DNA of 64,000 nt from Moniliella sp. 'wahieum' (lineage: Eukaryota), in NCBI GenBank assembly GCA_003971905.1, contig RSEE01000018.1, positions 620,001-684,000 of the forward strand. The letters run 5' to 3'. The notes under the pieces are model-generated. The model ran no database searches. It worked only from the letters and a program-made list of their open reading frames with translations, and had not been told where the DNA came from. Shown piece after piece: positions 7,359-62,076 of this stretch; position 1 is the first letter of the stretch; each line of letters begins with the position of its first letter. The position numbers and the translations under genes are program-made.

Positions 7359-7545
7359 ACGCGTGACCCGCGTGACGCGTGACTAGCTGGTGACCAGCCG
7401 GTGACCGGTGATCGGTGACCGGTGACCACAGCAATGATTAATGATTAATCGATTAATGAGCACAACGAGCGTGATCGAACGTTGGCGTTGATGCATGATG
7501 CATGATGGTTAAGGCTGACCAGTGACCGGTGACCCCGGTGACCCC
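7359..7545. repeat. Heptamer palindrome array (ACGCGT, ACCGGT, ATTAAT, ATGCAT units joined by G) upstream of HRQ1
   Basis: tg-acgcgt-ga (7375), g-accggt-g-atcggt-g-accggt-g (7404-7424), g-attaat-g-attaat (7437-7449), g-atgcat-g-atgcat-g (7491-7504). Confidence 0.85.
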
Positions 7546-7654
7546 GATTAAACCACCTCCTCGCTTTTTGTGTCCACCTCCCCATCTCTGAACCCGCGTG
7601 CTCACTCGACCAGCCTTGTCCCTTCCCCTCCTCCCCCTCCTCCCCCCCCTCTCG

Positions 7655-10600
7655 ATGAGCGACCAACACCGCCCATCTGCAAGGCGAAGCCCATTCGTAG
7701 GGCGACCATCTACGGTCAGACCTCACCTTCCCGCTGTCCGCCACCCGCGGCACCCTTCGCGGCTACCATCCACGCCTGTACCATCGGCATCCCCAGGGCC
7801 AAGCCAGCTCCGGCCTCCAGCCACTTCAGTCGATCGAGTAGCACCAAGACCGAGCCGTCGTCCTGCACCCTCCATACCTACTCCTCGCCCCTCTGCCTCT
7901 TATTCTTCGTCCCGCACCCTCTTTGACGCTGTGGTTGTGGCCTCTCCTCCCTCTGGCTCCAAACGGACCAGGTCGCCCTCTCCTTCTGCACCCCTGAGAG
8001 CGACGATGAACCAACTCTCTCAGGTGTACGCCAAGTTCTTCTATCCCCAAGCAGGAGAAAAGCTGTGCCTCATGGGTCTGCCCCTAACAAGCGCCCTGCC
8101 CGTTCTTCACCGTCTCCCAAGCCCTCACAAGAATCCAGCACTGCCTTTACTCGGCCTGCACCAGTATCTGAGGCACGAAAACACGAGATTCATCAGCCTG
8201 GGGACCTTCGAGCGTGATGAAATCCATGGTGAACTTTGGAAAGTACCGTGGCAACATCCCTGATTTTGATGCTCCAGTAACTCCGCCGGTGCGTTCGGAA
8301 GAGGGCAACATTGAATGGAGCAGAGCACGACAAGGCCCTCCCGTCTGACGTCTCCGACCTCCCTCTTCCTCGCCCTCCTCCTATCCATCCTGGGTCTCGT
8401 GCACCAGCCTTGAAACCTATTCCTGCATCTGTGGTGCCGGGATCGACATGGCCACCCCATTTCGTCCGGCTCGAACAGACCTTCCGGGCGGTAGCCCTTG
8501 TTTCCTCCTTTGTGGGTGCTCACAAACACATTGTGTTATCTTTCCAACTCCTTCGCTCTTCGACTGAGAAATTGCTCAAGCGGTACGTTGGACCATCCTG
8601 CTGGGGTTTGTGGCATTGTGTGGTTAACAACTCTCTCCAGCCCCCTTGAGTGGTTGATCTGGCTCAGATCAAATCGCTGTGCCCGGACATGGTTGACTTT
8701 GCTTATGCCAAGACCGGAGAAGTGGCATCGCACCTGTTTGATAGCGCTGAAAGAGGGAGAAGTGCCGATTCAAAGAACTCGATGATGCCTATGCTGTGGC
8801 CGCTTGGCGAGAACAGGGTGAAGAGGATACGGGCGATGGCGGGCAAGGATCTACTGCTGCTGCTGAGGATGACTATATTCTGATTTTTTCCTTCAAGGAC
8901 GGAGAACAGTCGGCGCCCAAAGCTACTTCCACTGGCAGGTTTGAAAATTATCGCAAGCAAGCTGCCTTTCGAGCTGCTCAGGGCGACGGCAAATTCTTGC
9001 AGGGTACACCCCGCGACCTATCGGCAGCCGAAACGCAGCAGCTCATAGTGAAACGGAACACCAAGTTCTCGCAAGCCATTCGGGAACTGCTGGCCGCCTG
9101 CGCTGAGGAGGGTAAGGAGAACCCTGTTCAGCTATTACTCGATGCAGCTGCTGATCACGTTCCCGTCCATCCCAACCTTGGTAAAGGAGGAGAGGACGGG
9201 GGGGTATTGTCCGGTCGGGACCGCAAGGCATGGCTGGACCATATCCTCCTACATCCAGAGCAGCGCCCCAGTTTGGGAGAGATCATCACTGAGCTCACCA
9301 ATGCGGAAGACTACCAGGACCAAATTGTCCCTGGTGGACTCAAGACAGTCCCAGCTCGAGACCCCAAATATGGGAGTCCCCAAAAGGCATTGTCGGAGGA
9401 TGTGCAGGACCTCTTGACTGACTCGGGTATCGAACGTCTCTACACCCACCAGGCACATGCCTTAGACGCTTTCGCGGATGGAAAGAATGTTGTGGTGGCT
9501 ACCCCCACCTCGTCGGGAAAGTCACTCATCTACCAGCTGCCGTTGCTCGATAGCTTGATCCATGGTGCCACTGCCTTCTTTATTTTCCCCACCAAAGCAT
9601 TGGCGCAGGACCAGTTGCGCTCCCTCTCTACTCTTTACGACGTCATCCTGGTATCGAGGGGGAGCTACCAGTGGTGGCTACCTACGATGGGGACACCCCA
9701 ACCCAAAACGCAAATTCCTCCGCAAAAATGCTCAAGTCATTTTTACCAACGTCGACATGCTCCACCAAGCTATTTACCTGGCGAAGAGCTTTGGAGACGG
9801 TTCCTCACTAACTTGAGGTTAATTGTGCTGGACGAGCTACATGTGTACGATGGTCTCTTTGGTGCACATGCTGCTCTCGTGTTTCGCCGACTGCGCCGCA
9901 TCTGCTCTGCTTTGGGTAATGAGAATATCCAGTTCATCAGTTCGTCTGCTACTATCTCGGACCCGGCGGCTCACATGTCGAATTTGCTGGCCTTGGACCC
10001 CGATACCGTGGCTCCCATCCTTGGAGACCTCGACGGCTCACCCCAGGCGGAAAAACATTGGGTCTTGTGGAACCCCCTCTCCTCGACGAAACGGATCCAT
10101 CGCAGGGTCGATCGTCTTACCGAAGTGACTCGCATCTTTATTCATCTCCTCGAACGAGGCGCTCGCACCATGATCTTTACTCGGGTGCGGCGGCAGGCCG
10201 AGATTCTCCTCCGCCAGATACGGGAGACGTTGCTACTCCAATCGGGCCGACCTGGTGGATCGGGTGGCGGCGTACAGAGGTGGGTATAGCCCAGAAGACC
10301 GCCGCAGGATCGAGCAATCCATGTTCACCGGCGACCTTCTTGGGATTATTTCTACCACGGCACTTGAACTGGGGATCGACATTGGTACCTGGATGCAGTC
10401 ATCATGCACGGCTTCCCTTACACCATGTCGTCCCTGCGTCAAATGGCGGGCCGTGCCGGGCGAAGGCAGGGCAGGGACAGTGCGCCTTCTTGGTGGCTGA
10501 GGCTTTCCCTGTGGACCAACATTATATGCGCAATCCCCATCTTCTCTTTGACGCCCCCGCCACGCCCATGCGTATCCAGTACGACAATGACTTTTACTCG

Positions 10601-60294: not shown

Positions 60295-60865
60295 GCTGCG
60301 CACGCGGGAAGGCAGCGGGCGGCAGAGGGGGTGTGTGGTGGTAGTGGTGGCGCGCGGTGGTGGCGGTGGCGGCGGCGCGGGTGGGGTAACGCAAGTGGCG
60401 GAGAAAGGCGAAAGACGAATGGGCGGGCGAGGAGGGGCGGTGTTAGGCGTGGGCTGGCTTGGCTTATTATTAGCTTACTTAGTACGCGCCAGCTGTGGCC
60501 TGGTGTGGTTCTCTGGGCCGACGCAGCTGGGCAGGCCAGGCACGGGCGAGTGGGTTGGTGCCAACCAGCGCACGCCGTCTGGGTTGACGTTGACGGATGA
60601 GCAGCTGGACGACGCGTGAGCGGCTGAGCGCAGCTGGCCCTCCCTGTGCCGCCCAGCACTGTCCTCCATGCATGTCCTCTCGCCCCACCCCGCCCTCCCG
60701 CCCGCACCAGCCGGCTGTCCGCCGCACCCGCCCCCGCGCCAGTGTGCCGCCGCGGCTAGCCCGAATTGCCGGCCGAGAAGCCCACTGCACGCAACCCTGG
60801 CCGCACGCCCAGTGCGCTCACGGGTGCACTAGGCCACATGGGCGTGGCACACCATGCACGGCGCC

Positions 60866-62076
60866 ATGAGCGCACTGCTCAGAGTACTCAGACTGCGTCC
60901 TGACTGAGCGCTTAACTAAGCACCACGCATGGAGCCACTGAGCAACGAGCTGCTCCTACATCAGCGCACCACCCCACACCCCTCGCCTCGTGCGCCTGCC
61001 CATGCTGCACGTGCACGGGGACGAACTTGCCAAGCTTCAAGCTTCAAGCTGTTGCGTCACCGCGTCACCCAGCAGACAACGTCATCGCGTCATCGAGTCT
61101 CTCATCCATCTCGATCACTGGCCTGGTCGTCTCTGGCCGCAGCACTGGCACGCGTCTTGTTACAGCGTCCTCTTTCTTAGCGGCTCGTGTCATTGCGCAT
61201 ACTGTCCCCGCCAGCCACCCTCGCCCCCACTACCTCGTCTCTCCATGTGCTAAACCCGCTGGTGGCACCGATGCATCTGGGGACGACGAGCCCGATCGAG
61301 CCCCACTCGACCCTGCCACCATGTATTCTGCGGGTACGAGGGGGTACCGGTAACCGGCTAGGCCTTAGCTCCGCGAAAACAGCGGGGACACACCTACTCT
61401 GGAGTGGAGGAGCGCCTGGCTTGCTCTGTTGTCCTATTGGAAAGCTCGCACTACGCAGATCATCGTATCGATTAATCGATTATCGATCAATCACACGCGC
61501 AATGCCAAGCGCCACTAGTGCGCCTGTAGACTGGGCGTAACTGGGAGCGCTGAGGAACGGAGGTAATAGCCAGATCCAAGTCAGATCGCAGACCAGTATA
61601 CAAATCAACACGCCAGTTTCGGCCATGTCACACGTCACGCGCCACAGGTCACCTTGTCTCCATGTTTGCGAGCTTCCGTTGAGCGCTGAGCAAACCAAGT
61701 CAAACACAGAGCTTGGTTCGCAGATTCCCGATTTAGGCCATCAAGTGCATCAAGAACCGACGAGACGTCCCACGGTACTGTGGACCGAGTTGAACTCGTT
61801 GTTGGCGTGTGCATGTGACGCGCGTGGCGCGTGACGTCACGATGCACGACCCTGGTTGTGGATTTATAGACGCGTGCGCATCCCTAGTCACTCTCTCGTC
61901 ACACTGTAGTGAAGAATATCGCATGGATACGATAGCCATCAGATCTCAGAATCGCCCCCTTGGCGATTCGGGCAGAGATATGGATGCACTAATGATAGGC
62001 GCGGGTGTGACCTACTCCCTCTCCTCTCTAAAGCCACTGCATCCTCAACGATCATCGATCATCGATATCGATATCA
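60866..62076. repeat. Scattered heptamer palindrome arrays upstream of SRPK (AGTACT, AGCGCT, AAGCTT, ACCGGT, ATCGAT)
   Basis: aagctt-c-aagctt-c-aagct (61032-61050), accggt-a-accgg (61346-61357), atcgat-t-atcgat (61475-61487), tc-atcgat-c-atcgat-atcgat (62052-62072). Confidence 0.75.

Follow-up and report, generated by a model that had tools for sequence, protein, structure and literature searches.

The stretch of DNA analysed here (positions 620,001 to 684,000 of contig RSEE01000018.1, 64 kb in all, referred to below as the window and numbered from its own first base) is eukaryotic and carries intron-split genes for ribosomal protein L3, carnitine acetyltransferase, Ctf4/Mcl1, protein kinases and a short-chain dehydrogenase, together with retro-elements. 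The L3 fragment is 82% identical to a Moesziomyces protein and 81% identical to a Malassezia protein, and the acyltransferase shares 43-47% identity with many basidiomycete proteins; judged by these matches, the source organism is basidiomycete-like and perhaps near the Ustilaginomycotina. No RNA genes were found in the window by Rfam or ARAGORN. Between the genes lie numerous short arrays of 6-bp palindromes that begin with A, end with T and are joined by one spacer base. These arrays, of which there are 66 in 64 kb, or ~5 per kb of DNA free of open reading frames (ORFs), are the subject of this study.

In what follows, w-x stands for the two bases after T-N-A and x'-w' for their reverse complement, S for G/C and pal4 for a self-complementary N4. 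Unless stated otherwise, expected counts come from 100 simulations of an order-3 Markov model of the whole 64-kb window, and ORF-free DNA means DNA outside any open frame of at least 110 codons, which makes up 20.6% of the window (13,163 bases).

A first-pass annotation of this DNA had named 14 such hexamers, and each of the 14 was confirmed in place. Of the 16 A-wxx'w'-T cores that are possible, 14 are present between T-N and N-A, and AAATTT and ATATAT are missing there, as had been reported. A complete identical neighbour lies 7 bases off for 7 of the 14 cited hexamers, and the other 7 have partial copies. There are 45 exact period-7 runs that reach 14 bases or more, and 9 such runs of period 8; a 6-bp palindrome in some rotation is present in 27 of the 45, and it is of the A...T type in 26 of these 27 (the lone exception being GTGCAC+C), with G as the spacer base in 14 of the A...T runs, C in 9, T in 2 and A in 1. 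The comparison set beforehand as able to refute the pattern, that of palindromic with non-palindromic N4 between TSA triplets, gave 57 TSA-pal4-TSA against 3.72 expected (simulation maximum 10) and 56 TSA-nonpal4-TSA against 52.9. The 20.6% of the window that is ORF-free holds 41 of the 57 matches, where 2.0 would be expected from this DNA alone (maximum 7; 300 simulations). The restriction to palindromes starting with A was borne out as well: identical hexamer palindromes one base apart are found 17 times when A-first (0.07 expected) and never when C-, G- or T-first (0, 0, 0; 0.02-0.13 expected), and at spacings other than one base there are 0-3. The anticipated lag-7 peak in the autocorrelation of TGA/TCA is present (113 against 56.6, z = 7.5) and is the largest, the other peaks lying at lags 6, 9 and 12, all multiples of three. 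When X-pal4-X was counted for all 64 trinucleotides, enrichment was seen only for TCA (26 against 1.24), TGA (25 against 0.74), TTA (5 against 0.16) and TAA (3 against 0.13), and palindromes of 6 or 8 bases between TSA triplets are without enrichment. The observation itself is confirmed as real and very strong, and the contention that this is not ordinary slippage, unrelated cores sharing one geometry, is upheld.

The portrayal of the arrays as tandem heptamers needs to be amended. It captures the period of 7 and the A...T palindromes, but the commonest form is a 12-mer and not two whole heptamers. This 12-mer reads T-N-A-w-x / x'-w' / T-N-A-w-x, that is, two direct copies of a 5-mer (D) with its final two bases standing between them in inverted form (P). 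In the 54 arrays whose spacers are identical, the length of the exact period-7 run has its mode at 12 (16 arrays), then 13 (9), with only 4 at 14, and by this measure two whole heptamer units (at least 14 bases) are reached in 24 arrays. Two T-N-A are carried by 49 of the 54; the other five are three-unit arrays, which are expected at 19-20, where 7 runs are found (3 at 19, 4 at 20), and no run exceeds 20. Most arrays are ~1.7 units long, and longer ones read D-P-D-P-D. With D = TSAwx, D-P-D occurs 29 times and its mirror form 28 times (0.12 expected in each case), while the full 12-mer, both strands counted, is found 65 times against 0.37 expected, and T precedes the 11-mer N-A-w-x-x'-w'-T-N-A-w-x in 32 of 36 cases.

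How the two parts of the unit relate to each other can be read from the spacers and junctions. The spacer is copied directly: the two spacers around a palindromic core agree in 59 of 75 T-N-A/pal4/T-N-A and, among pairs of G/C spacers, 51 are identical and 6 complementary (1.8 expected), whereas pure inverted copying would complement the spacer. It is always the 5-mer end distal to T-N-A that supplies the inverted dinucleotide, the T-N-A end fitting just 2 of 13 other spacers (~0.8 expected). Direct repeats of TSAwx are also enriched at junction lengths 3 (17 against 1.8), 4 (19 against 2.1) and 5 (10 against 2.0) and, as read by eye from the list, 6 of the 17 junctions of length 3 and 9 of the 19 of length 4 start with x'w' followed by one or two other bases (~1 expected by chance for each length). 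Of the inverted-copy junctions, only the 2-base form is strongly enriched, and the exact 2-base junction dominates. The best description of the unit is thus a T-N-A-anchored micro-insertion of five direct and two inverted bases that builds A...T palindromes, and copying of this kind automatically produces a hexamer palindrome A-w-x-x'-w'-T plus one spacer base.

Other geometries were tried and rejected. For a 7-bp target duplication of the odd palindrome x'w'-TNA-wx, exactly two matching bases on both flanks were found in 1 of 54 arrays. For a 3-bp T-N-A duplication with two bases added from each transposon end, the flank was found to repeat w-x or x'w' in 46 of 54 arrays, and this model was also discarded because 14 different 'ends' would be needed. 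A centred 5-bp duplication, w'-TNA-w, was dismissed in view of 16 arrays in which one flank matches at exactly two bases and the opposite flank at none.

For 13 of the 16 dinucleotides, cores are used at 0.4-1.35 times the frequency that TSAwx has in the background; AG (core AAGCTT) is over-used 3.5-fold, and AA and TA are unused against ~4.5 and 3.3 expected. Decay is spread about evenly within the unit: of the nine relations that define a 12-mer, each of those at inner positions is the only one broken in 7-10 cases, for T, A, spacer and palindrome alike. There are also signs of reiteration, with T-N-A chains at 7-bp spacing in excess at length 3 (14 against 3.8) and length 4 (9 against 0.16), and T present in the flanks of 12-mers at -7 in 30 of 62 and at +3 in 27 of 62. 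An AAGCTT array adjoins an AACGTT array at both 15740-15789 and 16348-16431, and 7359-7546 strings five cores, all with spacer G (exact runs at 7369, 7398, 7413, 7433 and 7489; chains of 3-4 T-N-A at 7402, 7439, 7489 and 7509). A shared spacer with a changing core in neighbouring units would arise because T-N-A-w-x is copied and w-x is then mirrored, so that the spacer is inherited and the core re-perfected. Over all arrays, the sharing of cores or of spacers between neighbours is not significant against label permutation (p 0.05-0.33 and p 0.07-0.10, respectively).

The individual arrays and related features are collected in Table 1. The 32-base palindrome listed there may be the same event with a longer inverted copy. 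Beside array-rich stretches there are ORF-free stretches of 520-970 bases with zero arrays (1307-1867, 35366-35887, 42635-43226 and 52755-53721). Outside arrays, odd palindromes centred on TGA/TCA show mild enrichment (166 against 126 expected), and units of the types CTSAG/GCTSAGC/CCTSAGG, their periods being 8-12, abound at 17078-17200, 26950-27130 and 50830-51042.

Table 1. Palindrome arrays and related features of the window (core+spacer; positions in window numbering).
Positions	Feature	Basis or remark
7359..7546	Densest cluster: ACGCGT, ACCGGT, ATTAAT, ATGCAT, ACCGGT cores, all spacer G (TGA on + strand), partly in one 7-bp register	direct reading
15740..15789	AAGCTT+G array in register into AACGTT+T array; cores differ at two central symmetric positions	chain of 4 T-N-A at 15762
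16348..16431	AAGCTT+C array with degenerate copies, then AACGTT+G array	
16610..16671	AAGCTT+G array, degenerate copies upstream	
16722..16760	AGGCCT / AGCGCT units amid CCTCAGG-type odd palindromes	
16798..16822	AAGCTT+C, exact 20-base run, three hexamers	
16890..16907	AGGCCT+G	exact run 16894-16907
16973..16998	Mixed cores ACCGGT, ACATGT, ACAGGT, spacer T	
17281..17296	ACTAGT+A	exact run
17581..17595	ACATGT+G	exact run
22175..22218	ATGCAT+C array with degenerate copies	
22486..22507	AGTACT+T	
25615..25662	AGGCCT+G (25615-25629) and AGATCT+C (25653-25662)	
26073..26084	TGTTA-CA-TGTTA 12-mer inside transposon fragment	paralogue alignment
26211..26224	TGAAC-GTTG-TGAAC: 5-base direct repeat, junction starting with inverted copy GTT	paralogue alignment
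26955..26986	32-base near-perfect palindrome of GCTGAG units around AGCGCT	self-match 93.75%
27135..27166	ACATGT+C array with variants	
29143..29157	ACATGT+G	exact run
36861..36874	ATCGAT+C	exact run
37376..37417	AAGCTT units, spacers C/T, plus variant array	
37517..37558	ACATGT+G array with degenerate copies	
45094..45108	AGATCT+C	exact run
45709..45745	ATGCAT+C array, chain of 4 T-N-A	
50570..50590	AATATT+G with variant copies	
50786..50804	AAGCTT+G, 19-base run D-P-D-P-D	
51010..51042	Period-12 repeat, AGGCCT alternating between TCA and TGA	
61031..61050	AAGCTT+C, 20-base run	
61466..61492	ATCGAT units, spacers TA, T and C	
62045..62072	ATCGAT+C array	

A glimpse of how the units come about is offered by a pair of old element copies within the window. 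Positions 25990-26352 are an inverted partial copy, 75% identical, of the tail (50137-50471) of a reverse-transcriptase element at 48172-50471, 22 kb apart. In the alignment, TGAAC-GTTG-TGAAC (26211-26224) faces a single GGAAC in the paralogue, the fragment at 25990-26352 having ~9 extra bases, and TGTTA-CA-TGTTA (26073-26084) faces a stretch that is ~8 bases shorter. Both motifs being absent from the paralogue, they appear as extra sequence in one old, presumably neutral copy, and they account for 2 of the ~5 length differences between the two. In a second paralogue pair (46100-46480 and 46890-47290), T-N-A-type length differences were not found; this region holds an inverted duplication of ~220 bases, 80% identical (46170-46385 / 46978-47217), with arms 600-950 bases apart and several length differences.

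Self-BLAST of the window returned four repeat pairs or groups only, namely a pair of long terminal repeats (LTRs), a transposon fragment, the inverted duplication and coding repeats. A dispersed-repeat origin was rejected on this ground, the array-bearing intergenic stretches sharing no homology beyond the arrays themselves. The LTR retrotransposon at 38923-42580 has 181-base LTRs that are 98.9% identical and matches to gag, integrase, SH3 and chromodomain, with a stop between integrase frames and a proline-rich 18/53-base repeat within the gag frame (40443-40676); no reverse-transcriptase match was found for it among the frames scanned. Elsewhere, a GGCTCA hexamer is repeated 28.7 times inside long overlapping open frames without Pfam match (3002-3173), and at 4210-6885, 17956-20631 and 57020-58288 long same-frame ORFs are split by single stops, TGA, TAA and TAG all being present. 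The latter may reflect decayed genes, or chance in DNA with a high G+C content, and a changed genetic code is not indicated. Stop-codon reassignment, suggested by the many TGA, was rejected, as the in-frame stops between long frames (TGA 14, TAA 7, TAG 4) are distributed much as in the sequence at large.

Outside the window, metagenome contigs were scanned for AAGCTT units in threes, (AAGCTTS)x3, which gave at least 121 stretches, most of them from unrelated organisms without the many-core pattern. Among the matches listed, only one locus (L079, a 12-kb piece, positions 1-12020, of a 37.6-kb eukaryotic contig) shows that pattern, with several AAGCTT+G arrays as well as AGATCT+G and ACCGGT+A, 2.9 units each and both 20-base runs. 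It carries two gene fragments for Upf1/Sen1-like helicases, and its source may be an organism related to that of the window. Its presence in this locus and not in the others suggests that the pattern is lineage-specific, yet extends beyond one assembly. No prior description of these repeats, literal array strings included, was found in a full-text literature search that covers subscription journals thinly, so that an earlier report is possible; the heptamer of Ustilago mentioned in the first-pass annotation was likewise not found in this thinly covered search.

We propose that the arrays as a whole are neutral scars of break repair, with a transposon as the most likely agent, and put the probability of this reading at roughly 0.45. 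What is shown is a recurrent event at non-coding T-N-A sites that converts T-N-A-w-x into T-N-A-w-x / x'-w' / T-N-A-w-x, a gain of 7 bp. For the mechanism, a perfect loop-less inverted copy is characteristic of a closed hairpin opened away from its centre, and a direct duplication of fixed length is characteristic of a staggered cut after fill-in; insertion and later excision of a hairpin-forming transposon would supply both. The break would be staggered, its ends keeping a 5-base duplication much like a target-site duplication after fill-in, and one end would pass through a covalently closed hairpin, the opening of which two bases off the tip would leave a loop-less palindrome akin to P nucleotides. 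The putative agent would be a cut-and-paste transposon or derived nuclease that forms hairpins on flanking DNA, prefers T-N-A, inserts and then excises. Each event would regenerate T-N-A-w-x, and repeat events together with replication slippage could extend the scar to arrays of 19-20 bases and longer, while, if a point mutation hits w-x before the next event, the unit made beside it would have a different palindromic core but an unchanged spacer. Scars would afterwards decay by ordinary substitution. The varying junctions (lengths 3-5) can be read as end-joining-like variation. A domesticated nuclease or an undescribed repair route would fit the data as well as a transposon, which is why the above probability covers break scars of whatever origin, a transposon being the likeliest agent. 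Copying by nick and template switch at T-N-A, which the first-pass annotation had put forward, comes close to this anatomy but departs from it in that only two bases are inverted and five, spacer included, are direct.

Features expected of excision footprints are indeed present. There is a fixed-length direct duplication (the 5-base repeat, with its modal run of 12) and a loop-less P-type palindrome, the latter, however, on one side only, which transposons forming hairpins on flanking DNA would not predict. The near-background usage of most cores, the position of most matches in ORF-free DNA and the extra sequence in the old element copy also fit neutral scars. The roughly even inner decay is what neutral scars with somewhat ragged borders would give, and not what would be given by a binding site with its free and constrained positions. 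From the ~1.5 single violations per perfect 12-mer, the mean age of the scars can be put very roughly at ~0.1 substitutions per site, and hand arithmetic from density and age yields a required event rate of a few per cent of the per-base substitution rate, which seems modest for an active element.

A number of observations nevertheless weigh against break-repair scars in the form proposed. The inverted bases come from one end of the 5-mer only, which a two-hairpin excision model does not predict, and T-N-A lies at the edge and not at the centre of the 5-base duplication, which is unusual for a symmetric transposase dimer. Typical transposon footprints have less uniform junctions than the 2-base ones seen here. 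Single violations at the three outer positions of the 12-mer number 13-21, as against 7-10 at inner ones, so that the borders are non-uniform, and a class of 8 arrays with 15-base runs is left unexplained by the scar model. The direction of change in the old element copy (insertion rather than deletion in the other copy) follows by parsimony from one paralogue comparison. No terminal-inverted-repeat element flanked by a T-N-A duplication was found in the scan of the 64-kb window and no DDE transposase domain among its 137 open frames (Pfam), and the sole element with a readable 5-bp target duplication is the LTR retrotransposon, where it is CTTTT and not T-N-A. All statistics, finally, are drawn from one 64-kb window.

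PIF/Harbinger elements make a 3-bp T-N-A duplication inside an extended palindrome, and their excision is mostly precise. Their targets resemble the units in having T-N-A central in an odd palindrome x'w'-TNA-wx, but the duplication here is of 5 bases with T-N-A at its edge, and such an element was not found in the window. Heptanucleotide microsatellites share the head-to-tail period of 7, the non-coding location and, in some arrays, 3-4 units; here, by contrast, arrays are mostly 1.7 units long, 14 unrelated cores obey one geometry and only A...T palindromes plus one base are enriched. Quasi-palindrome correction and short template switches also make or perfect short inverted repeats from neighbouring sequence, yet such mutation copies inverted only, whereas 5 of the 7 inserted bases here are direct, the asymmetric spacer included. 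A T-N-A anchor is not known to be a feature of quasi-palindrome or template-switch mutation.

The units also resemble footprints of hAT, Transib and MULE transposons and the P nucleotides of V(D)J coding joints, in that a direct duplication of set length stands around a short loop-less palindrome that is the reverse complement of the end beside it; some junctions here also carry 1-2 extra bases. Array density and junction regularity here exceed those known for transposon footprints. According to PMC5499845, flanking DNA is made into hairpins by hAT, Transib, MULE and RAG; hosts open these hairpins (Artemis may do so), and end joining then leaves footprints. The Transib report names this superfamily as the sole one among the DNA transposons of eukaryotes that has 5-bp duplications, a likeness to the units, and places it in fungi only in soybean rust (PMC1131882). 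Differences from all these footprints are that the palindrome is one-sided here, that T-N-A lies at the edge of the 5-mer and that neither element nor transposase was seen in the window. Soybean rust, for its part, is a basidiomycete. In the Transib report, some families target palindromic 5-mers such as CASTG and the targets described are GC-rich, such as CGGCG, unlike the T-N-A-w-x found here (PMC1131882). Footprints with P-type palindromes are a known kind of event, of which the T-N-A-anchored form with five direct and two inverted bases would be a variant.

If no break is involved, the arrays might originate in replication, as hairpin-prone heptamer microsatellites that arise when the polymerase switches template or realigns at T-N-A and that slippage keeps short, the palindrome merely favouring slipped intermediates. 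We consider this unlikely, even though direct repeats with a fixed 7-bp period, the existence of 3-4-unit arrays and degenerate flanking copies, and the capacity of any unit to pair with any other within a single strand would all be in accord with it. So would the fact that (AAGCTTS)n of 3-8 units is common in unrelated metagenome contigs (the at least 121 stretches mentioned), indicating that such units can expand by slippage elsewhere. However, slippage requires a pre-existing direct repeat while the commonest form repeats only 5 bases (run 12), and established stereochemistry suggests that a loop-less inverted copy would not be primable by fold-back of a free 3' end. Inverted copying would, moreover, complement the spacer, where mixed G/C pairs are few beside identical ones, and the T-N-A restriction and the junctions with 1-2 extra bases are left unexplained. 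In 40 metagenome loci of at least 3 kb (327 kb) carrying AAGCTTS arrays, other cores were not enriched (7 against 12 expected), nor were they in 11 loci of one metagenome sample series (3 against 2.3 expected), from which it follows that slippage alone does not make the many-core pattern.

Selection in promoters or terminators is the basis of another explanation, in which the arrays would be cis-regulatory sites for a homodimeric protein family, or for one protein reading TGA/TCA every 7 bp. Their intergenic location and uneven spread, with dense and empty stretches, would suit this idea, as would the preference for AAGCTT and the fact that upstream of a frame for a DEAD-box helicase there is an ACGCGT-N-A core, which we take to equal the MluI cell-cycle box of yeast. 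We nevertheless hold it to be improbable: there is no defined core, 14 of 16 being used and mostly in background proportion, spacer identity is kept although it would be dispensable for a reader of half-sites or palindromes, T, A, spacer and palindrome positions decay about equally, neighbouring arrays share cores no more than under label permutation, and motifs are present as extra sequence in a decayed transposon fragment. The specific suggestion of a protein that reads TSA half-sites at 7-bp spacing finds no support either, given the background core usage, the inherited spacer, the even decay and arrays that are mostly 1.7 units long. An artefact of assembly or sequencing is very improbable indeed, as the pattern is confined to non-coding DNA, shows a mutational decay spectrum, differs between two old paralogous copies and has three of its cores recurring in an independent metagenome assembly (that of L079); we know of no sequencing error mode that inserts five direct and two inverted bases.

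Beyond the scars themselves, it is possible, albeit rather doubtful, that we are dealing with a basidiomycete lineage that possesses an undescribed DNA-breaking activity (a T-N-A-targeting hairpin-forming transposase, a domesticated nuclease or a new repair pathway) writing precise 7-bp scars of five direct and two inverted bases into its genome. If the break-repair reading is true, a mutational signature of fixed geometry would be readable from a single genome, and it might make up a considerable part of the larger non-coding insertions (2 of ~5 length differences in the one comparison above). A neutral repair scar could then mass-produce palindromic hexamers, which are typical targets of dimeric regulators, and by generating every A...T type of 6-bp palindrome the scars would keep up a ready supply of dimer-binding sites such as ACGCGT. 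This would be a warning for motif discovery, in that a highly significant promoter 'grammar' need not be regulatory. For the biology of these organisms, it would point to a specific, T-N-A-preferring, hairpin-forming enzyme in a group of fungi that has hardly any known elements of this kind.

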